NCBI GenBank assembly: GCA_049642725.1
Contig: JBARPC010000005.1
Span: 1-47,507, forward strand
Length of the DNA: 47,507 bases
From: Minisyncoccales bacterium
GTDB taxonomy: Bacteria > Patescibacteriota > Minisyncoccia > Minisyncoccales > JAGMDC01
Reading direction: 5' to 3'
Below, one piece after another: positions 30,188 to 45,995 of the stretch (positions are counted from its first letter, which is position 1; each line of letters begins with the position of its first letter). A program made the translations under genes and the position numbers. Below the pieces are notes generated by a model. It was not told the DNA's origin. It ran no database searches and saw only the letters and a list, made by a program, of their open reading frames with translations.

Positions 30188-30319
30188 AATTTAGCTATTA
30201 TAGGATAGCATAATTGAGGAAATTTGTCAGCCCTAAATAATAAACCCGCTAAAATTTAAGCGGGCAAGGGTCGATTAGGGCAAGTGTAAAATAAATCTTA
30301 AATTCAAATTTAAACAAAT

Positions 30320-30526
30320 ATGGCTGTAGAAAAAGCAATAGGTAGCTCTAGTTTAGTGGAGGTAGTAGACCGAATTCTTGACAAGGGTGTTGTTATTGAC
30401 GCTTGGGTAAGAGTTTCATTAGTTGGTATTGAATTGCTGGCAATTGAAGCCAGAGTGGTAGTTGCTTCGGTTGAAACTTGGTTGAAATATGCAGAAGCTG
30501 TCGGTCTTACTGCCACCGCTGCCTAA
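30320..30526 (+). CDS. gvpA: Gas vesicle structural protein GvpA
   Basis: 68 aa, [53 protein letters not shown], the hallmark GvpA sequence. Confidence 0.9.
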
Positions 30527-30698
30527 GAGCTAAGCTAAATTGTTTAAAGCATCCTTTATGTTCGGAGGAGTACCCGAATTCCTTCTCCAAATCCTTAAAA
30601 AGGGTTAAGAGTAGAAAGTATGCCTTAAACAATATTTTGAATATCAAAATTTGTTCTTGAAAAAAAAGAGTAAATTCTGGTATTTAAATTTAAGAGTT

Positions 30699-31241
30699 AT
30701 GTCTAATAATAATTTCAAAATTGCTCAAGACATCGTCGCTTCATACGAAGCTCGGATAAAGGTAATTCAGGCAACAGCTGAAGACACCCAAAAATTGCTT
30801 GAAGAATTTAGGGAAAAGAGAGAAAAGATGAGCCAGGAATTAAAAGGAGCTTTATCCCAACATGAATCTTTGAGAAAGAAAGATTTTGACAAAATGATGG
30901 AAGATATTTTAATTGCTCAAAAAACTCGAGAAGAAAATGTAAAACAAATGCTAGTTGATTTTCAAGATGAGGAAATGAAAGTTGTTGAGGGTTTAAGAGA
31001 AATGCTCAAAAAAGGAGAAAAATTAAGGCTCAAAGATTTTAAGGGTACTTTGGTTAAAATTAGAGAAGAACAAGAAATTCGAGAAAAAAAAACCCCCACT
31101 CGTATTGGCGAAGAATTAATTCGGATGAAATCAGAAGTTTGTGAGATGCTTGAAAATTTTAAGAGAGAGCGGGAAAAAGTGGCTTCGGAATGGAAAGAGA
31201 TGACGACCTCAGTGAATCAAAAACGAAATTTAAATAAATAA
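30699..31241 (+). CDS. Coiled-coil gas-vesicle-associated protein (paralogue of 31708..32226; alternative start at 30651)
   Basis: Charged heptad-rich sequence sharing RKKDFDKMMEDI / LKDFKGTLVKI motifs with the downstream paralogue. Confidence 0.5.
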   Translation: MSNNNFKIAQDIVASYEARIKVIQATAEDTQKLLEEFREKREKMSQELKGALSQHESLRKKDFDKMMEDILIAQKTREENVKQMLVDFQDEEMKVVEGLREMLKKGEKLRLKDFKGTLVKIREEQEIREKKTPTRIGEELIRMKSEVCEMLENFKREREKVASEWKEMTTSVNQKRNLNK

Positions 31242-31295
31242 TTAACCCGCCAAAATTTTGCATCGCAAAACTTAGGCGGGTAAAGGTCAAAAACT

Positions 31296-31601
31296 ATGGC
31301 AAAAAAAGCATCAATTAAATACAAGATGATCACCTGTGCTTTCTGTAAAGGAAAAGGAATAGATCCTTTTGGAATTCCTTCAAAGTTGTCTAATTGCCAA
31401 GTGTGTTGGGGTAAAGGCAAAGTAGCCATTGCTGATATTCCTCATGAGACCTGCGGAGCTTGCGAGGGTTCAGGAATTTTTGAACATCATCGATTGCCTT
31501 GTTCGGTCTGCAAGGGGAAAGGAGTGGTTCCGAAAGACAGGAGGCAGGGATCGAAAGGAATGAATCCGGGCACGGGATTACCGGAAATCGGGAACTACTA
31601 A
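31296..31601 (+). CDS. DnaJ-type zinc-finger (CR-domain) protein
   Basis: Four CxxCxGxG repeats: CAFCKGKG, CQVCWGKG, CGACEGSG and CSVCKGKG. Confidence 0.6.
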   Translation: MAKKASIKYKMITCAFCKGKGIDPFGIPSKLSNCQVCWGKGKVAIADIPHETCGACEGSGIFEHHRLPCSVCKGKGVVPKDRRQGSKGMNPGTGLPEIGNY

Positions 31602-31707
31602 AAAAGTCGAAACTTAACATAAAATTAATTAAATTTTTGATTTTTAATTAATCTAATGTCTCATTAATTTTAGTCATTAGAATTAATTATTAGTCATTGT
31701 GAATAAT

Positions 31708-32226
31708 ATGGCTTACGCACAAGAAATGAAAAATTTAGCGGCCGAAATCAAAACCTCTCATCAAGACCGAACTCAATATATAGCGGACGTTAAAGATGCT
31801 ACTCATGAATTGATTGCTAAATTTCAAGGAGAATTGAAAGAAATGGCTAGAGATCTGAAAGATTTTCTGGCAAAAAGTGAAGATACAAGAAAGAAAGATT
31901 TTGATGGAATGATGAAAGGGATTCAAGTAAAGATTAAGGAAATTCAAGGCGATGTAAAAGATTTCTTAGCCGAAAGTGAAGAAAAAAGAATGGCCGATTT
32001 TAAAGTCACAATGAAAGATATTACTGATAGAGTTGATGATATAAAGAAAACCGCAAGGGGAATGCTTGGCAACTATAAAACAGAGAGAAAAGAGGCAGCT
32101 GGTTATTGGGGAAGATTGAAAGGCAAAGAGGCTGCAGTAGTCAAAGAAGCGGTAGTTGAAGAAGCGGTAGCTGAAGAAGCGGAAGAAGAAGCGCCAAAAA
32201 GAAAAAAAGGAAGAAGGAAGAAATAA
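31708..32226 (+). CDS. Coiled-coil gas-vesicle-associated protein with basic C-terminal tail (alternative GTG start at 31699)
   Basis: RKKDFDGMMKGI and VKDFLAESEEKRMADFK motifs are paralogous to 30699..31241. The sequence ends in an EEAEEEAPKRKKGRRKK tail. Confidence 0.5.
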   Translation: MAYAQEMKNLAAEIKTSHQDRTQYIADVKDATHELIAKFQGELKEMARDLKDFLAKSEDTRKKDFDGMMKGIQVKIKEIQGDVKDFLAESEEKRMADFKVTMKDITDRVDDIKKTARGMLGNYKTERKEAAGYWGRLKGKEAAVVKEAVVEEAVAEEAEEEAPKRKKGRRKK

Positions 32227-32306
32227 TTCGTATCCGAAGCCGCAAATTCGTAAATTCGTACAACGGTTTCGGTAAAAAGGTCGAATTTAATTTATATTCT
32301 AGTAAA

Positions 32307-33245
32307 TTGAGAGATATGCCTTATTTATCATCAGAAGAAGAACAAGCTATTATTGAGCCAAAACCAATGGCTGATTTTGTTGAGACACCTTACATTAAGC
32401 GATTGACTCGCCGAGCTTTGAATTATCTCAAAGTTGGAATTCCAGTCCATTTTAGGGGTCCGACTGGAACCGGTAAAACCACTTTAGCTTTACATGTAGC
32501 AAGCAAAATTGGAAGACCGGCAGTCCTTTTGCATGGAGACGACGAATATAAAACTTCTGATTTAGTGGGAGGCGAACACGGTTATCGTTACCGCTATTTA
32601 AAAGACAATTTTATTTCCAGCGTTCTTAAGGTAGAGCAAGATATGTATAAGCGCTGGACGGACAACCGCTTAACATTAGCCTGTAAAAATGGTTTCACCA
32701 TGATTTATGATGAATTTACTCGTTCAAAACCAGAAGCCAATAATATTTTACTCTCCATTTTACAAGAAAAAGTGATGGACTTGCCGGCCCAAAGACAGGG
32801 AGAGGAAGCTCATTATTTGCAAGTTCATCCCAATTTCTGCGCTGTTTTTACCTCTAATCCCGAAGAGTACGCTGGCACTCATAAAGCCCAAGATGCTTTG
32901 AGAGATAGAATGGTTACTATGGACCTGGATTATTTTGACCGAAAAACCGAAGTAGCAATAACTCAAACAAAATCTGGCCTTTCTGAAGAAGATTCCGGGA
33001 AAATAGTTAATGTGGTCAGAGGAATGAGAACGCACAATCCCTGCGAATTTCCTCCTACTGTAAGAAGCTGCATTACTTTAGCTAAGGCTGTAGTAATTAA
33101 TAGAGGAAAGGTTTCGGTTGCCGATTCCGTTTTTCGAGAATTGGCTCAAGATGTATTAGTTTCTCAAACTACTCGAAGCCCTTGGTCACCAAAACGAAAA
33201 GAGATAAAAGAATTGGTTGAAGGATTAATTAATAAATATTGCTAA
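32307..33245 (+). CDS. gvpN: Gas vesicle AAA+ ATPase GvpN (MoxR/CbbQ-like)
   Basis: Walker A GPTGTGKTTLALHVA, Walker B MIYDEFTRSKPE, and the position after gvpA. Confidence 0.8.
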   Translation: MRDMPYLSSEEEQAIIEPKPMADFVETPYIKRLTRRALNYLKVGIPVHFRGPTGTGKTTLALHVASKIGRPAVLLHGDDEYKTSDLVGGEHGYRYRYLKDNFISSVLKVEQDMYKRWTDNRLTLACKNGFTMIYDEFTRSKPEANNILLSILQEKVMDLPAQRQGEEAHYLQVHPNFCAVFTSNPEEYAGTHKAQDALRDRMVTMDLDYFDRKTEVAITQTKSGLSEEDSGKIVNVVRGMRTHNPCEFPPTVRSCITLAKAVVINRGKVSVADSVFRELAQDVLVSQTTRSPWSPKRKEIKELVEGLINKYC

Positions 33246-33248
33246 AAT

Positions 33249-33593
33249 ATGAAAACTTCAATAAAAACACTTCAAGATGTTAGTGGCTTCCACGATCTTA
33301 GAACATATACTGGAGCAGTTAGGAAAAGCGGCAAGCCAGCGCTTCCCACCACGAATATCCTAGATCTTTATATGCGAAGGAATGAAAGAGATAGGTTGGT
33401 CAAGGAATTAAAACTGGTGAAAAGAAGAAGGGTGCAGTTGCGCGGAAGATTAAAAGACGTAGAGAAGGAGATGACGAAACTTCTCGTTAAGGCTACCAAA
33501 ACAGCAGTAGACATAAGAGGAGAAACGATAAGGGGCGGCTTAAGTTCAATTGAGGAATCGAAAAAGAAAGGAAAAATGGTATTAGGATATTAA
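33249..33593 (+). CDS. Basic, coiled hypothetical protein
   Basis: 114-aa ORF. Confidence 0.4.
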   Translation: MKTSIKTLQDVSGFHDLRTYTGAVRKSGKPALPTTNILDLYMRRNERDRLVKELKLVKRRRVQLRGRLKDVEKEMTKLLVKATKTAVDIRGETIRGGLSSIEESKKKGKMVLGY

Positions 33594-33628
33594 ATTCTAA
33601 TAATTTGTGTTTAAGTTAGTGAATATTT

Positions 33629-33943
33629 ATGGGCATTATGACTACGAACGAGCTAAGAGTTTTATCTATTATTTGGGATTGGGGAGGAGAAGCATCGGTT
33701 GATATTATTGCCAGAGAAGTTGGTATTAGCATTGATTATGCAAGGCTTTTATGTGAAAGTTTGGGAAGAGAAGGCTGTATAGATTTTTTGGGCTCCAAAC
33801 TCTGCAAAATAAAAAGTAAAGGAAAGGTAATGGTAGCAAGTAAAAAGGGCCAGAATCCCCAAAAAATTGTTATCCCAGAAAGGCCGAGCAGATTCGGCTT
33901 AGGCAAAGATAAAAGAGGAAGAATTATTTTAAATTATGGTTAA
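33629..33943 (+). CDS. Winged-helix DNA-binding protein (putative regulator; paralogue of 37263..37709)
   Basis: LRVLSIIWDWGGEASVDIIAREVGISIDYARLLCESLGREGCIDF. Confidence 0.45.
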   Translation: MGIMTTNELRVLSIIWDWGGEASVDIIAREVGISIDYARLLCESLGREGCIDFLGSKLCKIKSKGKVMVASKKGQNPQKIVIPERPSRFGLGKDKRGRIILNYG

Positions 33944-34544
33944 AAAATATAAATTTAAAAAAACTGAAAAGGGAAAAACCGATCAGGCTAGAGAAGAATT
34001 GAAAAATCTGGAAGATTTGCCTTTGGTCGGTGGACTTCTCAAAGGATTGGGAAAATTCGTTGATCTGGCAGAAAGAGTAGAAGAAGCCGGAGGAGAGATT
34101 AAAAAGAAAGGAGAGATAAAAAGCGATGAGGGAAAGGTAAGGGGTATTTATGGATTTTCGATAAAAAGCGGAATCGGGGAGAGGCCGAAATTTCAAACTT
34201 TTGGCAATATAAAACCAATTAAAAAAGAAGCTAAAGCAAAACCGGAATTTAAAATCACGGAGACCAGAGAACCGATGGTGGATGTTTTTAATGAGAAAGA
34301 CCATGTTTTGATTGTAGCTGAGCTTCCTGGAGTAAGCGAAGACAGTATCAACTTGGATCTAAAAGGAGATATTTTGATCTTAGAAGCTGGAGATGAAAAA
34401 AGAAAGTATTCAAAAGAAATTTTGCTTCCCCGTTCGACTTCGCCTGGACGAAGTCCTGGCGGGCGGGCAGCGAAAGTTGATTTTGACGGGAGAGAAGAAA
34501 ACTTTAAGAATGGAGTACTTGAAGTAAAGATGAGAAAAATATGA
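33936..34544 (+). CDS. Hsp20/alpha-crystallin small heat-shock protein (GvpH-like position)
   Basis: [28 protein letters not shown]...ILLP...[12 protein letters not shown] matches an alpha-crystallin domain. Confidence 0.7.
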
Positions 34545-36697
34545 CAGCTATTTTCAAAATAGCAGAAGCAGAATCAAAAGATGTAGGGAGGGCTATTGTC
34601 CGAATTGACCCAAAAGATCTTTCCAAAGTTAAAGCTGAAATTGGAGATATAGTGGAAGTTAAAAGTGCCAAGGAAAAAGTTAAGAAAAAAACAGTAGCTA
34701 AATTGATGCCGGCTTTCGAAGAAATGCGCGGCAAGGGAATCTTACAAATGGATGGAATTTTAAGGGATAATATTAAGGTTGGTTTAAACGAGAAGATAAA
34801 GATTAAAAAGATAGAGACGAACCTCGCTTCAACTATAGTTTTAAAACCTTTAACTTCGGAAAGCTCTTTAAAAGAGACCGATTCAGAATACTTAGCTCAA
34901 ATATTGGATGGGGCACCAGTTATTACAGAGAATAAAATCCGGGCAACCTTTTTCGGATCAAAATTTCAAGACTTTTTAGTGGAAGATACTGATCCCGACG
35001 GGGCAGTTTTGATAAATTCCGAAACAACAATCAAAATTAAGGGGGCTGCCAAAGCAAAAAGAGGAGTAGGGATTACTTACGAGGATATTGGCGGCCTTAA
35101 AAAAGAAATGGGGAAAATTAGAGAAATGATTGAGCTTCCCTTGAAATATCCTGAGGTTTTTGAAAGATTAGGAATTGATGCTCCAAAGGGAGTATTGCTT
35201 CATGGTCCTCCGGGCTGCGGAAAAACTTTAATTGCCAGAGCTATTGCCAATGAAACTGACGCTTATTTTACCCATATTTCGGGACCGGAAATAATGGGTA
35301 AGTTTTATGGGGAATCCGAAGGAAGATTAAGAGAAGTATTTGAAACAGCCGAATCTAATGCTCCAGCTATTTTAGCAATAGATGAAATTGATGCTATTGC
35401 CCCTAAACGTGAAGATATGGGGGGAGAAAAACAGGTAGAAAGAAGAGTAGTGGCTCAACTTTTGGCTTTAATGGACGGATTAGAATCTCGAGGAGATTTA
35501 ATTGTAATCGGAATTACCAATATTCCTAATACTTTAGATCCTGCCTTAAGAAGACCGGGAAGATTTGATCGAGAAATTTCAATTCCTATTCCTGATAAAA
35601 ACGGCAGAAAAGAAATATTAGAAATTCATACCCGGGGAATGCCTCTAACTAAGAACTTTGATTTAGAGAAACTGGCTGAGATTACTCACGGTTTTGTAGG
35701 AGCAGATTTGGAGGCCCTAGCCAGAGAAGCGGCGATGTCGGCCCTGAGAGAGATTATGCCAGAGATTGAATTTGAAAAAGAATATATTCCTTATAAAAAA
35801 CTTTTGGGCATTGAAGTAACCATGGATCATTTCCGAGAGGCACTGAAAGAAGTTGAACCCTCGGCTTTAAGAGAAGTATTTACTGAGATTCCTAATGTCA
35901 GGTGGGAAGATGTCGGAGGGTTAGAGGACATAAAACAGACCCTCAAAGAAGCTATTGAATGGCCATTAAAATACGGAAAGCTCTTTGATCATTCAAAAAC
36001 CAGTCCCCCTAAAGGAATATTGCTTTCAGGGCCTCCGGGTACCGGAAAAACTTTAATAGCTAAAGCAGTAGCTTCTGAATGCGGAGTCAATTTTATTTCA
36101 GTTAAGGGCCCCCAACTTTTATCCCGTTGGGTTGGAGAAAGCGAAAAGGGAGTAAGAGAAGTTTTCAAAAAAGCAAAGCAATCCTCTCCCTGTATTGTCT
36201 TTTTTGATGAAATCGACAGTTTGGTTCCGGCTCGAAACCAATCTTCAGATTCCCATGTAACAGAACGGGTGGTTAGCCAATTTCTTACCGAACTTGACGG
36301 CATAGAAGAGCTTAAAGGAGTAGTAATTCTAGGAGCAACTAATCGATTGAATTTAATTGATTCTGCTTTACTGAGAGCCGGAAGATTCGATTTTCTCTTG
36401 GAAGTTCCAAAACCCGATGAAAAAACTAGGCTGAAAATATTCAAAATTCATACTCAAGGCAAGCCCTTGGCTCAAGATGTAGATTTTAAAATCCTAGGTA
36501 GGGAAACAGAGGGGCTTACCGGAGCTGATATTGAAACCATTTGTAAAAAAGCATCCATAATGGCAATTAGAGAGTTTGTGAATTCAAGCAACCCCAAAGG
36601 AAAGCTTTCGGCTTCCTACGTGGCAGGCCAAAACGAGAAAAATTTTAAAATTAAATTTAAATATTTTAAAGAAGCATTAAAGAATTTAAAGACATAA
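34541..36697 (+). CDS. Cdc48/VCP-like double-ring AAA+ ATPase
   Basis: N-domain plus D1 ([22 protein letters not shown]) and D2 ([22 protein letters not shown]), with second-region-of-homology motifs. Confidence 0.85.
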
Positions 36698-36698
36698 T

Positions 36699-37211
36699 AT
36701 GCCCAATATAGAAGATCTAAAGCAAGCACAACAGCAATTAAACCCCCACACCAAACGAGGACAAATCGCTGAAAGCGATTCAGTTGGAGAAGCCAGTCCT
36801 CGTTCTGGTGTGGGGGTAAAGGAAAGCGAGCAAGACCCAAAAGACACTAAAAATTTTCCCAGAAGAACTTCTCCTCCCTTCACTGTTTCCAGAGCTGTTA
36901 GCGAAGTGCCTGACGTTTCTCTAAACAAGAAGGAAATTCAAGGACAGGAGGAGAAGAGTTGGGTTTCTCCCCAAGAATGGCAAAAAGAAATCTTAAATGA
37001 AAAGCAAAAACTTGAAAAGGCGTCTAAGGAAATAGAAAATTGGCAGGCAAAAATTCAAGAACGGCTTGGGATAATAAAAAAATTAGAATCTCAAAGCGAA
37101 AAAATAGATGAAGCGGTAGGGGAACTTCAGCAGAAAATAGTTTTAGTAAAAAAAGAAAATAATACTTTCTTGTATCAAATAAGAACCTCTCGCTTCGCTC
37201 GAGAACCTTGA
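36699..37211 (+). CDS. Coiled-coil hypothetical protein
   Basis: 170-aa ORF with a coiled C-terminal half. Confidence 0.45.
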   Translation: MPNIEDLKQAQQQLNPHTKRGQIAESDSVGEASPRSGVGVKESEQDPKDTKNFPRRTSPPFTVSRAVSEVPDVSLNKKEIQGQEEKSWVSPQEWQKEILNEKQKLEKASKEIENWQAKIQERLGIIKKLESQSEKIDEAVGELQQKIVLVKKENNTFLYQIRTSRFAREP

Positions 37212-37262
37212 TTCCTGCCGGCACTAATGTATAAACATATAATTTTGAATTAAAAAACAATA

Positions 37263-37709: not shown

Positions 37710-37717
37710 AAAGGATT

Positions 37718-38761
37718 ATGAAAAAAGGAAAGAAGAAAATTAAACAATCGCAAGCTATGCCATCTCAAATTGGAAGAGGTTTAGATGTAGGGACTACTTT
37801 CATCTATTCAGCCCAGAAAATGGGTTCGGAAGTGAAATTTAATACTGAGCGAAACGCGTTCTTTGATATTGAGCGAAATGATTTCGTTGAAAACATATTA
37901 AAAAAATCCAATGTAAAATGCGCCCTAAAGGGAGATAAACTCTGTGTGATAGGAGAAAATGCGCTAAAATTTGCCAATGTTTTTGGCAAAGAAACGAGAC
38001 GTTCTTTAAAAAGCGGAGTAATTAGTCCCCAAGAAGAGGATGCTTTACCGATTCTAAATCTAATTATTGAAAATACTTTAGGTCCCCATCGCCATAAGGG
38101 CGAAACTATCTTTTATTCAGTTCCGGGCGCTCCGGTAGACGCTGATTTCAATGTAATTTACCATGAACAGATTTTAAGAAGAATGCTTCAGAATTTGGGA
38201 TATGAGCCAAAATCTATCAATGAGGGATTAGCAGTGATTTATTCTGAATTGGCTAATAATGATTTTACAGGGATGGGAATTTCTTTCGGCGGAGGAATGG
38301 CTAATGTTTGCCTGGCAGTAATGTCTATTCCAGTGTTTTCTTTCAGTATAGCCAAAGCAGGTGATTGGATAGATGCAGAAGTTGCGCGAGTAAGTAATGA
38401 AACTGGAAGCAAAATTACCGCAATTAAAGAATCCAGATTAGACCTTACGAAACCGGAAAATAGCTTAACTAAAATAGAGCAAGCTCTTTCTATTTATTAC
38501 AATCATTTAATCGAATATGTATTGAGTTGTGTTAAAAATGAAATTGAAAAGCAAAACAAAATGCCTTTATTAGAAAGCCCTATTTCTATTGTTATTTCTG
38601 GAGGAACAGCCAAGCCCAAAGGATTTTTAGAAAGATTTAAGACAGCCCTAAATAAAACTAATCTCCCCTTAAAAATCGGAGAAGTGAAACTGGCTTCCCA
38701 TCCTCTCCACACTGTAGCCAAAGGCGCGCTAATCGCAGCAATTGCTGATAAGGGAAAATGA
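37718..38761 (+). CDS. Actin-like ATPase (ASKHA fold; ParM/MamK/Hsp70-like)
   Basis: Phosphate-1 GLDVGTTFIY, connect/phosphate-2 GISFGGGMANVCLA, and adenosine VISGGTAK motifs. Confidence 0.55.
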   Translation: MKKGKKKIKQSQAMPSQIGRGLDVGTTFIYSAQKMGSEVKFNTERNAFFDIERNDFVENILKKSNVKCALKGDKLCVIGENALKFANVFGKETRRSLKSGVISPQEEDALPILNLIIENTLGPHRHKGETIFYSVPGAPVDADFNVIYHEQILRRMLQNLGYEPKSINEGLAVIYSELANNDFTGMGISFGGGMANVCLAVMSIPVFSFSIAKAGDWIDAEVARVSNETGSKITAIKESRLDLTKPENSLTKIEQALSIYYNHLIEYVLSCVKNEIEKQNKMPLLESPISIVISGGTAKPKGFLERFKTALNKTNLPLKIGEVKLASHPLHTVAKGALIAAIADKGK

Positions 38762-38765
38762 CATT

Positions 38766-39803
38766 ATGACAGAAGAAGGAAAATATATCTACTCCATAAT
38801 TAAAGAGAACAATGACCGAAGGTTTGATTGTATTGGGATAAATAATCGAGAGGTAAACATTGTTCACTACAAAGACATAGCAGCAGTGGTCTCAAGCAGT
38901 CCAATTATTAACTTTGATCGTTTAAACAAGAAAGAACTAACAAACCATGTTGCTACCCACCAAAGAGTAAATGAAGCAGTGATGAAAGAGTATGATGTTG
39001 TGCCTATGGCATTCGGAATTATTGCTCCCAGCGTCAATGAAGTGATGCGTATTTTAGAAAAAGCCTATCTTCAATTCAAAACAGCCTTTAAAAATATAAC
39101 CGGTAAAGCAGAATTTGCGGTTCAAGTATGGTGGAATCCAAAAAAACTTCTTGAAGAATTAGCTAACACCAATCCAGAAATCCGGAAATTAAAACAAACG
39201 GTGGTTTTGAAAGGAAGTATTTTAGGAATGCCAATGAAGTTGAAATTAGGAAAGTTAATACAAAAAGAAGCAGAAATTCAAAGACAAACTTTTATTAATG
39301 ATATTCATAAATCCCTAAGAAACTTATCCCTTGCTTCCACATCGAATAAATTAATTGATGATGAGATGATAGCCAACCTCTCTTTCTTAATAGAAAAAGC
39401 TAAAGAACTCGAGCTTGATAGAAAGATGCAAGAACTCGGAAAAAAATATGAGGGGAAATTAAAATTTAAATATATTGGGCCGATGCCTCCTTACAGTTTT
39501 GTAAGAATAAATTTAAACTTAGGCAATTTTGAAGTAGTTAATAGGGCAAGAAAACTTTTAGGATTAGAAGAAATAGCCACTCTTGATGAAATTAAAAAGG
39601 CTTATTATGTCCTTGCCCATCAATATCATCCGGATAAACATCAGGGTGACCCCCAAAAAGAAGAACAAATGAAAAAAATAGCCCAAGCCCATAGTATTTT
39701 GGAGAATTACTGCCAGAGTTATGATGATTTTGAAGGAAAAACCGAAGACCAAAAATATTCTTTTAAAGAAGGAGATGTTAAGGCCGCAATATTGATTCGT
39801 TAA
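38766..39803 (+). CDS. GvpF/L-family protein with a C-terminal J-domain
   Basis: N-terminal KYIYSIIKEN...VNIVHYKDIAAVVSS matches GvpF/L. C-terminal LDEIKKAYYVLAHQYHPDKHQGDPQKEEQMKKIAQAHSIL carries the HPD motif. Confidence 0.7.
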   Translation: MTEEGKYIYSIIKENNDRRFDCIGINNREVNIVHYKDIAAVVSSSPIINFDRLNKKELTNHVATHQRVNEAVMKEYDVVPMAFGIIAPSVNEVMRILEKAYLQFKTAFKNITGKAEFAVQVWWNPKKLLEELANTNPEIRKLKQTVVLKGSILGMPMKLKLGKLIQKEAEIQRQTFINDIHKSLRNLSLASTSNKLIDDEMIANLSFLIEKAKELELDRKMQELGKKYEGKLKFKYIGPMPPYSFVRINLNLGNFEVVNRARKLLGLEEIATLDEIKKAYYVLAHQYHPDKHQGDPQKEEQMKKIAQAHSILENYCQSYDDFEGKTEDQKYSFKEGDVKAAILIR

Positions 39804-39877
39804 TAACTCCCTTTTAATGAGGGGGGCATTAAAGGTCGAAGCATAAAATAAAAACCAAAATTAAAAAACAAAAAACT

Positions 39878-40216
39878 ATGTCAGAAATTATTACTTTATT
39901 CCAAACTCTGTATATTCAAGTTATTACGCTAATGATACTGATTGATATCCTTTTGGGAATTACTGCCGCGGTTGTCAAAAAAGATTTTCTTTTTGCGAAG
40001 TTAGCTGATTTTATGAAAGGCCCGGTAATAGCCTATATTTTAGGTTTTGCTGTTTTAGGAATGGTGGCTCCAGTATTGCCAATGATAGGCACTATTGCCT
40101 TGGGACCATTAGTTCTTAAGTTTGCCTTTGTTTTGATTGTCTTGACTTTATTGGCTTCCATTTTTAGGAATTTAAAGAAACTGGGATTACCGTTGCCAGG
40201 AATTCTGGAAAAATAA
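39878..40216 (+). CDS. Small multi-TM membrane protein
   Basis: 112 aa with three predicted TM helices. Confidence 0.45.
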   Translation: MSEIITLFQTLYIQVITLMILIDILLGITAAVVKKDFLFAKLADFMKGPVIAYILGFAVLGMVAPVLPMIGTIALGPLVLKFAFVLIVLTLLASIFRNLKKLGLPLPGILEK

Positions 40217-40221
40217 GTATT

Positions 40222-40256
40222 GGACGTGTGGCGTCCGAATTGGACGTCGCACGTCC
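40222..40256. promoter_or_regulatory. Two tandem 15-bp palindromes (GGACGTGTGGCGTCC and GGACGTCGCACGTCC)
   Basis: Located directly upstream of the ATG at 40265. Confidence 0.4.
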
Positions 40257-40264
40257 ATAAGATT

Positions 40265-41029
40265 ATGATCGAAGCTCAAGGAAAATATCTTTATTGCGTT
40301 ATTAAAGAAAAGAGTCCTAAGAAATTTAATATTTTGGGGCAGGAGGGAAAAGAAGTTTATACAATTAATGAAAGGGATTTGGCAATTGCGGTGAGCGATA
40401 CATTAAAAACAGAATATTCGTTTATCAAAGAACACTTGACAGGGCATCAAAGAGTTATTGAAGAGGTGATGAAGGAAGGATACGATGTTTTACCGGTTCG
40501 TTTTGGAACAATAGCAAAGACAGCCGAAGACGTCAGAGAAAAAATATTAAAATCAAAAAGAAAAGAACTTTTAGAAACATTTCCAAAAGTGGAAGGTAGA
40601 GTAGAATTGGGTTTAAGGGCTTATTGGAAAGATATGCCGGGTATTTTTCAAGAAATAGTTAAAGAAAACCCTGAAATTCAAACAGCAAAAAAAGAAGCTC
40701 AGAAAAACCCATTCCAAATGAAAGTTGCTAGTGTAGGAGAAATAGTCCAAAAAGCGCTTGATGCCAAAAGAGAAAGAGAAGCTGAAAAGATACTTAATCC
40801 TTTAAAGAAATTAGCGGTAGATTTTAAAGAAAGAGAATTTCTGAGATCAAGCGATGTTATGAAAGATTCAATGATTTTAAGCAGTGCTTTTCTGGTATCA
40901 AAAGATAATGAGAAAGAATTTGATAAAAGAGTAGAGTCCTTTACCAAAAAATATGGGGAGAGAATGAAATTTATTTACATGGGTCCTATTCCTCCTTTTA
41001 ATTTCGTAGAATTGGTTTTAAACATATGA
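40265..41029 (+). CDS. GvpF/L-family gas vesicle protein
   Basis: MIEAQGKYLYCVIKE...VYTINERDLAIAVSD. The track ORF begins at 40220 but that stretch is palindromic. Confidence 0.7.
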   Translation: MIEAQGKYLYCVIKEKSPKKFNILGQEGKEVYTINERDLAIAVSDTLKTEYSFIKEHLTGHQRVIEEVMKEGYDVLPVRFGTIAKTAEDVREKILKSKRKELLETFPKVEGRVELGLRAYWKDMPGIFQEIVKENPEIQTAKKEAQKNPFQMKVASVGEIVQKALDAKREREAEKILNPLKKLAVDFKEREFLRSSDVMKDSMILSSAFLVSKDNEKEFDKRVESFTKKYGERMKFIYMGPIPPFNFVELVLNI

Positions 41030-42975
41030 CAAATCAATTCCTCATCAACCCTAAATTGAATTTTATTATTTTTGGAGGAAAGGGCGGCAGCGGAAAAACA
41101 ACTTCAGCCTGCGCGACTGCCCTGCATTTAAGCCAAAAACAGGGAGATAAAAAGATTTTAGTGGTTTCTACTGATCCAGCCCCTTCAGTAGGCGATAGTT
41201 TCGATGTAGAAGTCGGCAATAAAATTACTCACATCAAAGACAATGTCTGGGCTCAAGAATTGGATGCCAAAGAATTAATGGAAGATTTTCGGAAAAAAAA
41301 TTTAGAGACCATTAAGACATTAGCAGATAGAGGGACTTATCTTTCAAGAGTTGATATAGAAGAATTTTCTTCTCTTTCTCTGCCGGGAATGGATGAGATG
41401 ATGGCTGTTATAAAAATTGCGAATCTTTTGAAAACTGAAAAATATGACTTAATTATTCTTGATACCGCGCCTACCGGCCATACTAAAGCGCTTCTATCAT
41501 TACCTAAAAAAATGAAAACATGGTTGAGGGTAGCAGATTTAATGCTCGCAAAACATCGATTTATGATGAGGAGAATAAGAGGAAAGTATGTAAAAGATGA
41601 ATGCGATAAATTTTTAGAAGAAAGCAGGGCTGATATAGAAAGAGTAGAGGAACTTTTAAAAAATTCTGAAAATACTGAATTTGTTCCGGTAACTATTCCT
41701 GAACCAATGAGTATATTAGAAACAGAGGATTTGGTTGATGATTTGAAAGAAATGGACATTTCTGTGAAAAGTATAATCTGCAATCGGGTAATGGTTCCAG
41801 ACAAATGTGTATTTTGCAGATTAAGAGTCAAAGAAAAAGAAAAGCACATTAAGTTGATTGAGGAGAAATTTAGCCATTACAATCTTTTTAAAATACCTCT
41901 TTTTCCTTCAGAAGTTAGGGGCAATAGCTCTTTACAAGAATATGGCAGGGTTTTATTTGGCGAAAAGAAATTTGAGATTGCTCTTCCGAGAATTTTACCG
42001 AAATTTCCAGAAATTCCCCAGGGCAGAATGGCTGATTTTCTGAAAAAAGATTTAAATTTTGTTATTTGCGGAGGAAAGGGAGGGGTGGGAAAAACCTCGG
42101 TAGCGGCAGCTACTGCCATATCTTTCGCCAAGAAGTATAAGGATAAAAAAATTCTTATTACCACCACTGATCCGGCTCACGCTTTAAGTAATATCTTTGC
42201 CCAAGAGATTCCTTTCGGAGAAAAAGCAGTTCCAATTCAAGGAATAAAAAATTTAGATGGATTAGAAATAGATGCTCAAAAATTACTTCAAGATTTTAAA
42301 GAAGAATATAAAAAAGATATCCAAGGAGTATTTGAAAAATTTTTTACTGGAGGCGTGGATGTAGCTTTTGACCGAAGAGTAATGGAAGAATTATTGGATT
42401 TTTCTCCGCCAGGATTAGAAGAAATAATGGCTTTGGGAAAAATCACCGATTTGATGAAGGAGGGTAAATATGATATTTATGTTTTAGATTCAGCCGCTTC
42501 TGGACACTTGCTTCGATTTTTAGAACTTCCTGGCTTAATAAGGAAATGGCTTAAAAGCATCTTTAAAATACTTCTTAAATATAAAAATATAACTAGGGCC
42601 GTAGAAATTAAAATTCGACTTCTGGAATTATCTAAAAATATTAGGAAAATTCAAGAAACATTATTTGGATCTAAAAATACGGAGTTTATAATGCTCAGTA
42701 TTGCCGAAGAAATGGGAGTAAGAGAAATGGGGGATTTAGGCAAATGTTTAGAAAAGTTGAATGTCAATTTCAATTATATTGTTATGAATTACATAAATCC
42801 TTCTTCTCGCTCCTGCAGATTCTGTTTAGCCAAAAGAAATAATCAAGAAAAATATATTAAATTAGTAAAGAAAAAATATCCTTCAAAAAAACTGATATTA
42901 ATTCCTTTATTGCCGCATGATATTCGAGGAATAGATTCTTTAAATAAGTTTTCAAAAATAATATACGGCATATAA
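41026..42975 (+). CDS. ArsA/GET3-family ATPase, tandem double domain
   Basis: Two deviant Walker A motifs (GGKGGSGKTT and GGKGGVGKTS) plus DTAPTGHT and DSAASGHLLRFLELP. Confidence 0.8.
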   Translation: MTNQFLINPKLNFIIFGGKGGSGKTTSACATALHLSQKQGDKKILVVSTDPAPSVGDSFDVEVGNKITHIKDNVWAQELDAKELMEDFRKKNLETIKTLADRGTYLSRVDIEEFSSLSLPGMDEMMAVIKIANLLKTEKYDLIILDTAPTGHTKALLSLPKKMKTWLRVADLMLAKHRFMMRRIRGKYVKDECDKFLEESRADIERVEELLKNSENTEFVPVTIPEPMSILETEDLVDDLKEMDISVKSIICNRVMVPDKCVFCRLRVKEKEKHIKLIEEKFSHYNLFKIPLFPSEVRGNSSLQEYGRVLFGEKKFEIALPRILPKFPEIPQGRMADFLKKDLNFVICGGKGGVGKTSVAAATAISFAKKYKDKKILITTTDPAHALSNIFAQEIPFGEKAVPIQGIKNLDGLEIDAQKLLQDFKEEYKKDIQGVFEKFFTGGVDVAFDRRVMEELLDFSPPGLEEIMALGKITDLMKEGKYDIYVLDSAASGHLLRFLELPGLIRKWLKSIFKILLKYKNITRAVEIKIRLLELSKNIRKIQETLFGSKNTEFIMLSIAEEMGVREMGDLGKCLEKLNVNFNYIVMNYINPSSRSCRFCLAKRNNQEKYIKLVKKKYPSKKLILIPLLPHDIRGIDSLNKFSKIIYGI

Positions 42976-42979
42976 TTTT

Positions 42980-43249
42980 ATGGCATTTTTAATAGACGAT
43001 ATATTATTAGCTCCAGTTAAAGGTGTTGTTTGGATAGCTGAAAAAGTCCGGGATATTGCCCTGGAAGAGATAGAAGACACCCCGGAAAAACTTCAAAGAG
43101 AACTCCTTGATTTACAAATGGAATTAGAGGTAGAACAAATTACCGAAAAAGAATATCAAAAAAAAGAGAAAGATATTTTAGAAAGATTAGAATCTTTAAA
43201 AGAAGAAGATAAAAGTAAAAAGGTCGACTCAAGAAAATTAAACAAATAA
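42980..43249 (+). CDS. gvpG: Gas vesicle protein GvpG
   Basis: MAFLIDDILLAPVKG...ELLDLQMELE...EKEYQKKEKDILERLESLK matches the GvpG pattern. Confidence 0.6.
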   Translation: MAFLIDDILLAPVKGVVWIAEKVRDIALEEIEDTPEKLQRELLDLQMELEVEQITEKEYQKKEKDILERLESLKEEDKSKKVDSRKLNK

Positions 43250-43260
43250 CAAAAATTATT

Positions 43261-43530
43261 ATGGAGCCAAAAGAACTTATAGAAAGCGCGAAAAAACAAT
43301 TAGCCGATTTAACTGGTTTTAAAGAACCGGCCGGAATTGGATTTAAAAAAGAAAAAGAAGGGTGGGTAGTAACAGTTGAAATTGTTGAAAAAAAATCTAT
43401 TCCCGAAGGAATGGATATTATAGGAACTTATGAGGTTCAAATAGATGCCAAAGGAGACCTGCTTGGTTATGAAAAAACGGCAATGCGGAAAAAAATGGAT
43501 ACTGGGGCCTTTGAGAAAAAAGAAGAGTAA
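43261..43530 (+). CDS. gvpO: Gas vesicle protein GvpO
   Basis: LADLTG...GWVVTVEIVEKKSIPEGMDIIGTYEVQIDAKGDLLGYEKT resembles the haloarchaeal GvpO core. Confidence 0.55.
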   Translation: MEPKELIESAKKQLADLTGFKEPAGIGFKKEKEGWVVTVEIVEKKSIPEGMDIIGTYEVQIDAKGDLLGYEKTAMRKKMDTGAFEKKEE

Positions 43531-43537
43531 AGGTTAA

Positions 43538-44344
43538 TTGTTCAATTTTATGGATAAGGGATTATATCTTTATTGTATTAGACGGAAAAATGACTCTAAA
43601 TTTTCTGGAAAAGGAATTGGAGGAGAGGAGGTTTATGCTATTCCTTATCAGGATTTAGAGGCAGTAGTGAGTGAAGTTTCTTTAGAAGAATTTGGTTCGG
43701 AAGAAATTCAGAGGAAAGCCCAAGAAGATCTCAAATGGATTAAAGAAAAAGCTCAACTTCACGAGCAAGCCGTTGAAGAAGCTATGAAAAGAGGTGATGG
43801 AGTTTTGAGTATAATTCCAATGAAATTTGGTACCATTTTTAAGACCAAAGAAAAACTAGAAGAAACCTTAAAAAAGCATTACAGACAATTTCGGGAAAGT
43901 TTAGAAAGATTGAAAGGAAAGCAAGAATGGGCAGTAAAAGTATATTTAAATCGCAAAGCCTTCGAAGAGGAAGTAAAAAAAGTTAGCAAGGTAGTGCAGG
44001 AAAAGGAAAAAGAAATAGCCCAACTTCCTGAAGGGATTGCCTATTTTATGCAAAAGCAAATAGATGAAGCCGTTTCAAAAGAAGCAGATAAGGCCATTGA
44101 AAATTATACTGAGATTTTTTTTGAAACTCTTAAAAAATATGCAGAGGCAGAGACTAAAGGAAAAATTTTAGAAAAAGAATTGACCGGAAAGTCCTTGTCC
44201 ATGGTTTTAAATGCTATTTTTCTTGTTTCCGAAGAGAAATTAGAAGATTTTATAAAAGAAATTGATAAATTAAATAAAGATTATAAACCCAAAGGTTTTA
44301 ATTTTGAATACGCTGGCCCCTGGCCGCCGTATAACTTCATTTAA
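43538..44344 (+). CDS. GvpF/L-family gas vesicle protein
   Basis: GLYLYCIRRKND...VYAIPYQDLEAVVSEV with a long helical C-terminal half. Confidence 0.7.
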   Translation: MFNFMDKGLYLYCIRRKNDSKFSGKGIGGEEVYAIPYQDLEAVVSEVSLEEFGSEEIQRKAQEDLKWIKEKAQLHEQAVEEAMKRGDGVLSIIPMKFGTIFKTKEKLEETLKKHYRQFRESLERLKGKQEWAVKVYLNRKAFEEEVKKVSKVVQEKEKEIAQLPEGIAYFMQKQIDEAVSKEADKAIENYTEIFFETLKKYAEAETKGKILEKELTGKSLSMVLNAIFLVSEEKLEDFIKEIDKLNKDYKPKGFNFEYAGPWPPYNFI

Positions 44345-44348
44345 AGAT

Positions 44349-44954
44349 ATGAAACATCATTCAATTAAAACTCCAGAGACTGATACAAAAAGCCCCATGG
44401 GAAGAGAGCCGACACTCGAGAAAGTAACCCTCATTGATGCCTTAGACAAGGTTCTTGAAAAAGGAGCAATAATACAGGGAGATGTGGCAATAAGGGTAGC
44501 CGATGTAGACCTTATATATTTAGGATTAAGAGTTCTTTTAACCTCTATTTCCAAAGCTGAAGAAATGTCTGGCAAAAATTGGAGAAGCTTTGGAACCGAT
44601 TATCATCCTAGTCAAGAACCGATTAAAGAAGAGTTGCAATATCTGGCAAAATTAGAACAAGAAATAAGGAAAGCAGAAGCTAATATACCCAAACTTATTG
44701 ATGCTGGAAACCCCAAAAAAGCAGAGCAGGGGATAGCCAAATTAGTCCTAACTCTTGTTGAACTCCTTAGAAGACTAATGGAAAAAGAAGTAGTTCGTCG
44801 AATTTCAAGAGGATCTCTTTCTAATGTAGAAATTCAAAAGCTGGGACTGACCTTTAAAGCCATGGAAAAGAAAATGCAAGAACTAAAAGTAGTTTTTGGG
44901 ATTGAGGATGAGGAGTTAAATCTGGACCTGGGGCCGCTCGGAAATCTAATGTAA
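44349..44954 (+). CDS. GvpA-superfamily protein: GvpJ/M-like core with GvpK-like C-terminal region
   Basis: TLIDALDKVLEKGAIIQGDVAIRVADVDLIYLGLRVLLTSI, then ...KLVLTLVELLRRLMEKEVVRRISRGSLSNVEIQKLG...LNLDLGPLGNLM. I remember the DLGPLG region as a GvpK feature. Confidence 0.6.
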   Translation: MKHHSIKTPETDTKSPMGREPTLEKVTLIDALDKVLEKGAIIQGDVAIRVADVDLIYLGLRVLLTSISKAEEMSGKNWRSFGTDYHPSQEPIKEELQYLAKLEQEIRKAEANIPKLIDAGNPKKAEQGIAKLVLTLVELLRRLMEKEVVRRISRGSLSNVEIQKLGLTFKAMEKKMQELKVVFGIEDEELNLDLGPLGNLM

Positions 44955-44982
44955 TTAAAATAATAAATAATTAATTAAAACT

Positions 44983-45291
44983 ATGGCACAACAAATTGCT
45001 CACGGTATAGAAGCCACAAACTTAGCTGATATTTTGGAACGAGTTTTAGATAAAGGAATTGTTATTGCTGGCGACATTCAGATTAAGCTAGCCGATGTTG
45101 AATTGCTGACCATCAAAATTAGATTATTGATTGCTTCAGTAGATAAAGCCAAAGAAATGGGAATTAATTGGTGGGAGACTGATTCTTATTTGAGTAGCCA
45201 AGCAAGAGAGATAGAGTCAGAAAAGGAAAGAATAAAACTAGAGAAGAAAGTGGAAGAACTCGAGAAAAAGCTGAAACCTAAAGCCGAATAA
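44983..45291 (+). CDS. Small GvpA-superfamily protein (GvpM/S/K-like)
   Basis: LADILERVLDKGIVIAGDIQIKLADVELLTIKIRLLIASV. Confidence 0.6.
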   Translation: MAQQIAHGIEATNLADILERVLDKGIVIAGDIQIKLADVELLTIKIRLLIASVDKAKEMGINWWETDSYLSSQAREIESEKERIKLEKKVEELEKKLKPKAE

Positions 45292-45368
45292 AAACCAAGG
45301 TCGAACCCACGCACCAAAATAAATTCGGTGCGGGGTAAATATTTTCAAATAATTAAATTCTATTTATT

Positions 45369-45650
45369 ATGACTACAACTACTTCAGATAAAACTCAGGC
45401 CAAAGCTATAGAAGAATTGCTGGAAATGGCAAAAACCTGGGGAGAAGAACCAGGCAAGATTCAGCATGCTATTGAAACTTATGAGAGGGTAATAGGAATT
45501 GACCCGGAAAGCAAAGAAGCAGAGCGGGCTAGAGAAGCCCTGCTTGAAATAGCCAAAAGGTTTGAAAAGGAAGGAAAAAAATATTCAGCTTATTATCTTT
45601 ATCAAAAAATAGGTTATGGAAGAGAGGGCATGTCTAAAAGACCTGTTTAA
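45369..45650 (+). CDS. Hypothetical helical protein
   Basis: 93-aa ORF preceded by a hairpin + AAGGTCGAA motif. Confidence 0.4.
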   Translation: MTTTTSDKTQAKAIEELLEMAKTWGEEPGKIQHAIETYERVIGIDPESKEAERAREALLEIAKRFEKEGKKYSAYYLYQKIGYGREGMSKRPV

Positions 45651-45734
45651 TTAGAGCTAAAGTAAAATTTTTTATTTAGCTAGTTATACTACTAAATTTA
45701 TATTAGATTAATTTAACTTTTTTGGTTAAAGAAA

Positions 45735-45950: not shown

Positions 45951-45995
45951 TAAACCACGTTAGAGATTCATCTCTAAACGGGGTAAAGAAGAAAT

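Follow-up and report, generated by a model that had tools for sequence, protein, structure and literature searches.

The contig JBARPC010000005.1 of a Minisyncoccales bacterium (assembly GCA_049642725.1) was analysed over positions 1–47,507, referred to here as the window. Between 30320 and 45650 the window contains a gas vesicle protein (gvp) gene cluster in which core gvp genes are interleaved with genes for chaperones, an unfoldase and an actin-like ATPase. Listing and translation of the open reading frames (ORFs) gave 22 genes in this region, all on the + strand, and the coordinates below refer to that strand unless noted otherwise. All 22 ORFs are intact, with conserved motifs present; intergenic gaps are at most ca. 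170 nt, and several neighbouring ORFs overlap by 4–8 nt. Small ORFs continue past 45650, with two or three more reaching 46565. Families were assigned by Pfam and NCBIfam scans against curated cut-offs. A preliminary description, made from the sequence alone, had already proposed an expanded gas vesicle cluster here, and every gene class it named was found in its place on the + strand. Its list did not include four genes described below: those for the membrane protein TM112, the small proteins s114 and TPR93, and an XRE-family regulator at 29146–29529.

The core set that had been claimed – GvpA, GvpN, three GvpF/L proteins, GvpG, GvpO and J/K/M-like proteins – matched family models above cut-off throughout. 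The gvpA gene (30320–30526) encodes a major shell protein of 68 amino acids (Pfam Gas_vesicle, 9.1e-17; NCBIfam NF006874, 129 bits against a cut-off of 100). It aligns over its full length with Anabaena GvpA from the solved gas vesicle structure (8GBS, E 3e-30), with 57 of 68 residues identical (ca. 84%), and also with GvpB of B. megaterium (7R1C, E 1e-25). The gvpN gene (32307–33245) encodes an AAA+ ATPase with the Walker A motif GPTGTGKT (TIGR02640 gas_vesic_GvpN, 4e-98, 328 bits against 266.8; Pfam AAA_5). The three GvpF/L proteins are encoded at 38742–39803, 40220–41029 and 43538–44344 (Pfam GvpL_GvpF, 1.4e-60, 5.4e-60 and 1.9e-62, respectively), and the first of them has a J domain fused to its C-terminus. 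Between the second and third are gvpG (42980–43249; Pfam GvpG, 4.9e-18) and gvpO (43261–43530; Pfam GvpO, 3.9e-19).

Two further genes encode GvpA-family proteins. The ORF at 44304–44954, the true start of which is probably the ATG at 44349, encodes a fusion of a J/M-like Gas_vesicle domain (1.2e-12, residues 42–80) with GvpK (9.9e-29, residues 136–216); the same fusion was called in three related loci from other genomes, L001, L003 and L004. The gene at 44983–45291 encodes a minor, GvpJ-like protein (Pfam Gas_vesicle, 1.3e-17), for which the best NCBIfam model, halo_gas_GvpJ, scored 4e-14, under its cut-off. The GvpA-like ORFs thus pass the Gas_vesicle models, a check the preliminary description had itself put forward. 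No ORF of the cluster matched the model for GvpC, the outer scaffold protein, at the Pfam thresholds used; GvpC is found in cyanobacteria and haloarchaea and is not universal.

The largest group of additional genes is related to protein folding and unfolding. The ORF at 34541–36697 encodes a Cdc48/VAT-type double-ring AAA+ unfoldase, in agreement with the Cdc48-like protein described earlier. It scores 923 bits against a cut-off of 802 with TIGR01243 (CDC48) and has the full set of Pfam domains: CDC48_N, CDC48_2, two AAA and two AAA_lid_3. Its closest solved structure is Thermoplasma VAT (5G4F, E 1e-221). There are two Walker A motifs and two aromatic pore loops, one per ring (KFYGESE and RWVGESE). 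The HbYX proteasome-docking motif was not found at the C-terminus, which ends in KEALKNLKT. Directly upstream is the gene for a GvpH-like small heat-shock protein of the Hsp20 type (33936–34544). The Pfam models GvpH (1.4e-5, 25.7 bits against 22) and ArsA_HSP20 (2e-5, 24.5 bits against 22.5) fit this protein better than the generic HSP20 model, with which it scores 16.9 bits, under the cut-off of 20.8. Its match to the NCBIfam ‘archaeal Hsp20’ model (1e-33) is under that model's cut-off as well.

Two DnaJ-related elements had been noted before and were recovered by the family models. One is a stand-alone cysteine-rich zinc finger of 101 amino acids (31296–31601), a candidate holdase, with four CxxCxGxG motifs at residues 14, 34, 53 and 69 and a match to Pfam DnaJ_CXXCXGXG above cut-off (5e-9). 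Its gene is found in most related clusters. In L029 and L038, both from metagenome-assembled genomes (MAGs) labelled Anaerolineae, the zinc-finger gene is represented by 3–7 separate tblastn matches inside the gvp cluster; L029 also has three tblastn matches to the Get3-like ATPase described below. The other element is the J domain at the C-terminus of the first GvpF (Pfam DnaJ, 5.6e-16). In 32 of 32 homologues the J domain is likewise C-terminal on a protein of GvpF length, and the HPD motif is retained in the window protein and in all 32. The protein has no G/F region and no DnaJ C-terminal domain, and is thus not a DnaJ orthologue.

The gene at 41026–42975 encodes a tandem, pseudo-dimeric ATPase of the Get3/TRC40/ArsA family, as had been predicted, with two ArsA_ATPase domains (7e-137) and a TIGR00345 score of 448 bits against 135. 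Its P-loops are at residues 18 and 350, and a CxxC motif is found near residue 260 of each half (CVFC at 261 and CRFC at 597), which we take to be the zinc-binding CXXC of Get3 dimers. This motif is kept in most of the single-domain and tandem cluster homologues that cover the site. The closest solved relatives are Chlamydomonas ARSA1 (5ZME, 2e-74) and then archaeal Get3 (3ZQ6, 3UG6), while ArsA of E. coli (1F48) is a far weaker match (3e-34). No ars genes turned up in general Pfam scans of the window proteins. As judged by sequence, the window ATPase is Get3-like rather than ArsA-like.

The actin-like ATPase reported in the preliminary description is a member of the volactin family. The protein encoded at 37718–38761 matches Pfam PF25216 (Volactin) over profile positions 3–321 of 321 (1.7e-89, 300.9 bits against 35), and the glycines and aspartate of its nucleotide-binding motifs (GxDxGT and GGG) are invariant across 20 homologues. 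No relative was found among PDB sequences. An AlphaFold2 (AF2) model of the protein (predicted local distance difference test score, pLDDT, 74; predicted template modelling score, pTM, 0.73) has MreB, MamK, EutJ, FtsA and actin as its top Foldseek matches, with TM-scores of only ca. 0.45–0.5. Clustered at 50% identity, the family comprises ca. 375 representative clusters at E ≤ 1e-30, and among the representatives listed only P0251 and P0252, besides the query, reach 50% identity to the window volactin. Some representatives (P0250, P0253, P0255 and others) are 650–890 amino acids long, with two volactin-like stretches or long N-terminal extensions, and from their sequences would be tandem or fused actin-like proteins. 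Volactin-family proteins with 32–37% identity to the window protein are also encoded in two genomes of huge uncultured phages, LR745208.1 (485 kb) and LR756511.1 (595 kb).

Directly upstream of the volactin gene is a gene (37263–37709) for a protein referred to here as wH2, a candidate filament adaptor or regulator in which a disordered linker joins a winged helix to a conserved C-terminal helix. In an AF2 model built from nine close homologues, residues 1–70 form a confident winged helix, residues 75–120 are disordered and residues 126–142 are helical; a broader alignment showed a conserved C-terminal motif. The top Foldseek matches (ArsR, MarR, CggR, Sso10a and the centromere-binding protein of pNOB8) are not significant (E ca. 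0.005–0.03). The wH2 family is the first ORF upstream of volactin in 36 of 43 gvp-linked loci, and a hidden Markov model (HMM) search recovers more, while the family is missing from the volactin loci of Planctomycota and haloarchaea that are not linked to gvp genes. One 3.5-kb contig labelled ‘Nanoarchaeota’ (DPANN) encodes wH2 and volactin with no gvp gene and was set aside as uninformative. A shorter paralogue, wH1 (33629–33943), matches the wH2-family HMM (1.6e-13) and wH2 itself in blastp (7e-5), and has no Pfam match. Both proteins had been described as winged helix-turn-helix regulators; they may not be regulators, and one of them, wH2, pairs strictly with the actin gene.

The same combination of genes is found in many other genomes. 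The contigs that encode three of the volactin homologues yielded five loci, drawn from different metagenomes, and all five are gvp clusters with the same extra genes: zinc finger, GvpN, Hsp20, Cdc48, volactin, GvpF-J, ArsA, GvpG, GvpO and the Gas_vesicle–GvpK fusion. A wider scan with a volactin alignment, limited to one genome per species, gave 80 loci, against which all 24 window proteins were searched with tblastn. Two of these loci, L033 and L049, from MAGs labelled Falkowbacteria, keep the gene order of the window, with protein identities of 38–89%. Many others, including L001, L003, L004, L013 and L022, have these genes too, shuffled into blocks that remain co-directional. By their labels, the MAGs and metagenome contigs that bear the cluster come from at least 12 phyla. 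Among these labels are Patescibacteria, Saganbacteria, Omnitrophota, Nitrospirota, Chloroflexi, Planctomycetia (including Ca. Scalindua rubra), Lentisphaerae, Elusimicrobia, Aerophobetes, Acidobacteria, Desulfobacterales and Bacteroidetes. Several of the related contigs come from groundwater of the Hainich wells. The view that the accessory genes belong to one co-directional cluster is upheld by this recurrence, and so is the integrity of the assembly: the accessory genes are on the same strand and contig as the gvp genes in independent assemblies, which argues against a chimera.

The gvp-linked volactins form one clade in a neighbour-joining tree. At least two gvp genes were found in 43 of the 50 volactin loci with 49% identity or more to the window protein, and gvp genes were found in none of the 37 loci below 49%. 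These 37 distant loci comprise a large Planctomycota clade, one Terriglobia locus and copies on haloarchaeal megaplasmids (42–43% identity). Of the seven exceptions among the 50, two are the loci L010 and L039; the others are contigs that are short or truncated, and some of these have Cdc48/Hsp20 or zinc-finger/Hsp20 as neighbours. A link between haloarchaeal volactins and gas vesicles was considered and rejected, the copy in the vesicle-forming Halogeometricum being near rdfA and SMC-like shape genes. When the search was anchored on Cdc48 instead, the 80 closest metagenomic relatives (62–80% identity) had gvp genes nearby in 66 cases, Hsp20 in 66 and a J domain in 40. Taken together, the counts from the Cdc48 side and the volactin side resolve the cluster into a core and two separable modules, a widespread proteostasis module and a rarer actin module.

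The host had been thought to be similar to members of the candidate phyla radiation (CPR), and the contig agrees with this. The window begins with trmD and tRNA genes of bacterial type, and the best named homologues of TrmD (74–80% identity) are labelled Parcubacteria, Nealsonbacteria and Patescibacteria, in line with the NCBI label Minisyncoccales. The assignment of the host to the CPR (Patescibacteria) is made from this housekeeping sequence on the same contig and not from binning alone. An identical volactin protein was found in an independent Logan assembly (two contigs; sources ncbi and lgn).

Several genes of the cluster encode proteins of no curated family. CC1 (30651–31241, with the start probably at the ATG at 30699) is a basic alpha-helical repeat protein and a candidate outer-surface (GvpC-like) or scaffold protein. 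It has an internal repeat period of 51, and its gene also directly follows gvpA in L004, L013, L022, L033 and L049. CC2 (31699–32226) is an alpha-helical repeat protein with an acidic and then basic tail, and has sub-threshold similarity to phasins and apolipoproteins. The two are paralogues (blastp E 3e-12). CC2 contains two 33-amino-acid repeats (self-shift score 92, against a shuffle maximum of 58); this period was considered as evidence of equivalence to GvpC and dropped, as the homologues have periods of 51, 58, 65 or 69. A profile of the CC family gave sub-threshold matches to coiled-coil proteins, designed helices and apolipoproteins among PDB sequences, and no match to GvpC. A third coiled-coil paralogue had been proposed at 36699–37211. 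The protein encoded there, u170, is a partly disordered coiled-coil protein of no family, with no relation to CC1 or CC2 detectable by blastp, so that only the first two remain as a pair. It is poorly conserved, and its sole homologue in the related loci is weak (L007, 31%).

The remaining small genes are conserved to different extents. Directly after gvpN is the gene for s114 (33249–33593), a very basic protein (isoelectric point 10.5) of 114 amino acids and no family, and the order GvpN–s114–wH1 is kept in L001, L003, L004, L013, L022, L033 and L049. TM112 (39878–40216) is a membrane protein with four hydrophobic segments and a match to Pfam Phage_holin_4_1 (2.3e-7, 31.4 bits against 22.2); among the related loci it was found only in the Patescibacteria-like clusters L003, L008, L009, L028, L092 and L099. 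TPR93 (45369–45650) is a small helical protein with only sub-threshold matches to TPR, YbgF and SNAP models, and has homologues of 35–79% identity in the clusters L015, L045, L056, L091 and L111. A small basic ORF of no family, u71 (45735–45950), is probably the final gene of the cluster. Homologues of u71 adjoin TPR93 in L015 and L091; the cluster of L022 has a weaker homologue (32%) at another place. Beyond u71, u189 (45996–46565) encodes 189 amino acids, has a hydrophobic segment in its N-terminal part and matched no family; its homologues (63–74% identity) are inside or at the end of the Patescibacteria gvp clusters L013, L028 and L099. Scans of s114, u170, wH1, TPR93 and u189 against Pfam at E up to 1 and against NCBIfam returned nothing significant.

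Upstream of the cluster, an XRE-family helix-turn-helix protein (29146–29529, − strand; Pfam HTH_3, 1e-12) is encoded divergently from gvpA, outside 30320–45650. Homologues with 61–65% identity are in the same divergent position, ca. 720–750 nt upstream of gvpA, in L004, L033 and L049, and the protein is probably a regulator of the gvp cluster. About 130 nt upstream of gvpA is a long hairpin (30117–30189, + strand), a possible 5’ leader or operator, formed by an inverted repeat with 26-nt arms that are 92% complementary. Its predicted RNA fold has an energy of −44.2 kcal/mol (z −6.96), and the same hairpin is found in L022, where both arms have changed in ways that preserve base pairing. A box, GGTCGA(A/T)T, 50–60 nt upstream of the gvpA start appears, by eye, to be common to L022, L033, L049 and L013. 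The 790-nt intergenic region between the XRE gene and gvpA also contains a perfect (GA)14 microsatellite (29868–29895), which may be a slippage-prone switch or may be functionless. Just past the gvpA stop codon is a further inverted repeat with 19-nt arms (30539–30633, + strand; fold −29.5 kcal/mol, z −3.45), a structure that may stabilise or attenuate the mRNA and so set gvpA apart from the downstream genes. Promoter and terminator consensus matches in 28600–47507 were not clearly above shuffled expectation and were not used. No iteron-like or centromere-like repeat array was found in 28600–47507 or in the region upstream of gvpA.

Features of mobile DNA are found near the cluster. A large serine recombinase (11950–13269, − strand) is encoded in the window directly beside a LOOT RNA (Rfam RF03000, 98.6 bits) at 11793–11914 (− strand). 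In L004, a 64%-identical serine recombinase (18980–20311, − strand) directly follows the gvp cluster, with a LOOT RNA (93.9 bits) at 20419–20538 (+ strand), and the cluster is bounded on its other side by a tRNA gene (915–985). The presence of a recombinase with an adjacent LOOT RNA near the cluster in both genomes suggests that the gvp genes are carried on an integrative island; it also suggests that LOOT RNA is linked to this type of serine recombinase. Between the recombinase and the gvp cluster of the window (13392–28598) are genes for a DNA methylase with a ParB domain, a Type ISP restriction-modification enzyme (1025 amino acids), a PIN protein and a PIF1-type helicase, together with about eight ORFs without a family. 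Part of this region has a very low G+C content: the neighbouring 20–28 kb has 0.26–0.29, against 0.35–0.40 in the cluster. In L004, a 202-kb contig, the last gene of the gvp cluster before the recombinase is an FtsZ gene (17697–18887; Tubulin 1e-47, FtsZ_C 2e-22), a second cytoskeletal gene adjoining a gvp cluster.

The canonical gvp clusters are gvpACNO/DEFGHIJKLM of the Halobacterium p-vac region, gvpA-C-N-J-K-F-G-V-W of Anabaena and gvpAPQBRNFGLSKJTU of B. megaterium, and GvpH is a standard Hsp20-like Gvp of haloarchaea. In common with these, the window encodes GvpA, GvpN, GvpF/L, GvpG, GvpJ/M, GvpK, GvpO and a GvpH-like Hsp20, and its repeat proteins CC1 and CC2 follow gvpA at roughly the canonical position of gvpC. 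Unlike them, it has no recognisable GvpC, GvpD/E, GvpI, GvpV/W or GvpP/Q/R/T/U, its GvpJ/M and GvpK are fused, and one GvpF has a J domain. Added to the canonical set are Cdc48, the cysteine-rich zinc finger, the tandem Get3, volactin with wH2, and the holin-like membrane protein.

Some of this expansion has precedents. An ArsA homologue and Hsp20 were reported in gvp clusters of cyanobacteria, Chlorobi, Bacteroidetes, Acidobacteria and a deltaproteobacterium (Castillo & Saier 2010, PMC2963123). Those clusters and the window share a two-domain ArsA-family ATPase of ca. 640 amino acids and an Hsp20 inside the gvp cluster, with no ars genes nearby. The window ATPase is closer to Get3/ARSA1 than to E. 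coli ArsA and has the Get3-type CxxC, a point that goes beyond that report. In the preliminary description both Hsp20 and the tandem ATPase were thought to be foreign to described gvp operons. Hsp20 is indeed in the cluster, as the GvpH and ArsA_HSP20 models show, but both genes had already been described in such operons (PMC2963123, PMC9501494). In contrast, the 2010 report has no Cdc48, actin-like gene, J-domain fusion or zinc-finger gene (PMC2963123), all of which are in the window, and the genome paper for Scalindua rubra lists ‘11 gas vesicle synthesis proteins’ with no comment on accessory genes (PMC5486813). In the full-text literature searched, outside which most subscription journals fall, no description was found of Cdc48, volactin or any actin homologue, a J domain or a cysteine-rich zinc finger in gvp clusters, nor of gas vesicles in Patescibacteria. 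The earlier suggestions of an undescribed gvp architecture and of an organelle unusual for a CPR host are consistent with this. We provisionally regard the association of Cdc48, J-GvpF, the zinc finger and volactin with gvp clusters as new.

The accessory proteins also have counterparts in other systems. Volactin of Haloferax volcanii forms dynamic filaments and takes part in the transition from rod to disk shape, the one role in which the family is known (Schiller et al. 2024, PMC10869688). The window protein belongs to the same family (PF25216), has 42–43% identity to haloarchaeal members and has a predicted actin fold. The gvp-linked bacterial volactins are on a separate branch from the haloarchaeal ones and have a wH2 partner that the haloarchaeal loci lack; in Halogeometricum the neighbours are the rdfA and SMC-like shape genes mentioned above, not gvp genes. 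MamK, one of the top structural matches of the window volactin, is likewise an actin-family ATPase encoded inside the gene cluster of an organelle. The window protein is not of the MamK family by sequence, however, and has no MamJ or MamY beside it, the candidate adaptor being a winged-helix protein. Gas vesicles are protein-shelled and magnetosomes membrane-bounded; the role proposed here, to position and segregate an organelle, would be analogous to that of MamK. The window Cdc48 and Get3 share full domain architecture and motifs with archaeal VAT/Cdc48 and Get3/TRC40. Unlike the archaeal and eukaryotic proteins, they are found in a bacterium and inside a gvp cluster; the window Cdc48 lacks the HbYX motif with which archaeal Cdc48 docks to the 20S proteasome, the window Get3 is a fused tandem, and their presumed client is a cytoplasmic shell protein, not a membrane protein.

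The reading that we favour, with moderate confidence, is that the window contains an intact gvp cluster of a Patescibacteria host, one of a class that is widespread in uncultivated bacteria and, to judge from the literature searched, undescribed, in which the core genes travel with proteostasis and cytoskeleton modules. The genes present, their intact motifs, the J-GvpF fusion and the strong, phylogenetically broad linkage were observed directly; from them we infer functions for both modules. GvpA-family proteins are short and very hydrophobic, and Get3 is a protein that shields the hydrophobic segments of tail-anchored proteins. The chaperone module probably handles aggregation-prone proteins of the GvpA family, judging from its domain families. 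According to a review (PMC9501494), GvpA, GvpJ and GvpM form aggregates when chaperones are missing, the GvpA monomer is bound by GvpF, and GvpH keeps GvpM from aggregating; the roles proposed here follow from these properties. The J-domain GvpF would recruit the DnaK of the host to a client bound by GvpF; the zinc finger and the GvpH-like Hsp20 would be holdases; the tandem Get3-like ATPase would shield hydrophobic segments; and Cdc48 would pull out or unfold subunits of the GvpA family that are misassembled or collapsed, so that they can be reused or cleared.

In the actin module, wH2 would be the adaptor of a volactin filament, and the two would position, align or partition gas vesicles as MamK does magnetosomes. 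Taken alone, this positioning role, which is drawn from analogy, deserves clearly less confidence than the overall picture. CC1 and CC2, at the usual position of gvpC, could be surface or scaffold proteins, and the cluster is probably carried on an integrative island, which would account for its spread across phyla. The dedicated folding, targeting and positioning machinery put forward in the preliminary description can thus reasonably be inferred from the domain families and from the linkage of the genes, and its gene set and conservation stand. A bolder version, which we find rather doubtful, is that many uncultivated bacteria, ultra-small CPR cells among them, have a self-contained gas vesicle machinery that moves between phyla by integrative island. 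In this version the Get3-like ATPase, the J-domain GvpF, the zinc finger and Hsp20 would make up a delivery line for the shell protein, Cdc48 would take apart or recycle a shell that is otherwise nearly indestructible, and a private actin, the gvp-linked volactin with its winged-helix adaptor, would position or partition the vesicles, as the first cytoskeletal system dedicated to a protein-shelled organelle.

Three other explanations were weighed. The wH2–volactin pair could be a DNA partition cassette, similar to the type II ParR/ParM systems, that serves a mobile island or episome and is outside gas vesicle biology. In that case wH2 would be the centromere-binding protein, and DNA copies would be separated by the push of the actin filament. 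An actin-like ATPase beside a small protein with a DNA-binding fold follows the logic of ParMR, AlfAB and Alp7AR, the module is optional among gvp clusters, and a large serine recombinase is near the cluster in the window and in L004; still, the pair is embedded between gvp genes and not at an island edge, and while its position shifts across phyla it stays inside. The adaptor-first gene order is atypical for ParMRC-like systems. The weak structural matches of wH2 include a plasmid centromere-binding protein, AspA of pNOB8 (4RS8), but none of those matches is significant (E ca. 0.005–0.03), and there is no iteron-like or centromere-like array near the pair or anywhere in the cluster. Salactin, a related haloarchaeal actin, is reported to aid DNA partitioning (PMC10869688). 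The volactin subclade seen here, on the other hand, is almost never found away from gvp genes, a pattern that a general partition system would not show, and the pair is found on chromosome-sized contigs, e.g. of 202 kb. We consider a partition cassette unlikely.

The accessory chaperones could also be general stress or proteostasis genes that were co-located or co-transferred on the island and have no specific role in vesicles. General roles in the cell are known for Hsp20, DnaJ-type domains, Cdc48 and Get3 alike, an island could provide such functions to the small genome of a CPR bacterium, and mobile and defence genes (recombinase, restriction-modification, PIN, PIF1) abound in the window around the cluster. 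This explanation seems improbable to us given that the J domain is fused to GvpF in 32 of 32 homologues, the closest Cdc48 relatives are beside gvp genes in 66 of 80 cases, the linkage survives extensive shuffling of gene order across many phyla, and Hsp20 fits the GvpH and ArsA_HSP20 models better than the generic HSP20 model. Alternatively, the cluster could be real but mis-assigned or recently acquired, and unexpressed, so that it is silent cargo or a binning or assembly artefact and there are no CPR vesicles. No gas vesicles of Patescibacteria are reported in the literature searched, the region is variable and island-like, with a G+C content of 0.35–0.40 against 0.26–0.29 nearby, and the MAG labels of related loci include implausible mixes. 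Nevertheless, none of the 22 ORFs is broken and their motifs are conserved, the contig itself has a trmD of CPR type and bacterial tRNA genes, and the identical protein is present in the independent Logan assembly. The cluster is also found on at least 12 other contigs with the labels Patescibacteria, Parcubacteria, Falkowbacteria or Saccharibacteria, in one case with genes for TyrRS, PBP1 and PolX as neighbours, and the CPR copies, at 38–89% identity, still have intact ORFs, which indicates long-term maintenance. Silent or misplaced cargo therefore has little probability in our estimate.

A number of observations weigh against the favoured reading of an intact CPR cluster with two functional modules. 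MAG taxon labels can err and the phylum count may be inflated. L010 and L039 have close volactins and no gvp gene in the flanks covered, including 10 kb on one side. Volactin was found in only 11 of the 80 Cdc48-anchored loci, which makes the actin module optional, and the 22-kb loci L145, L147 and L153 have gvp genes and Cdc48 without it; volactin therefore cannot be required for vesicle assembly itself. In its modelled structure the N-terminal domain of wH2 resembles an ordinary DNA-binding winged helix, and the protein may be no more than a transcription factor. A GvpC-like role for CC1 and CC2 is weakly supported, with a repeat period that varies among homologues and no homology to GvpC, and the holin-like TM112 has no place in the model. 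Finally, ultra-small cells leave little room for gas vesicles.

The cluster bears on the question of how the very hydrophobic GvpA stays soluble, is delivered and enters the growing shell, and the use of gas vesicles as acoustic reporter genes is limited by poor assembly and proteotoxic stress. The holdases, J-domain adaptor, Get3-like carrier and unfoldase of this cluster are concrete candidates for helpers in gas vesicle engineering. Cdc48 is unusual in bacteria, and its linkage to gvp genes provides a handle on its role there. If the proposed function of the actin module is correct, an actin tied strictly to gvp genes would extend organelle-positioning cytoskeletons from magnetosomes to a protein-shelled organelle; a gvp-linked volactin would also give this little-studied family a second biological context. 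Buoyancy organelles in the CPR, in turn, would bear on a possible planktonic phase of these ultra-small and supposedly host-attached cells.

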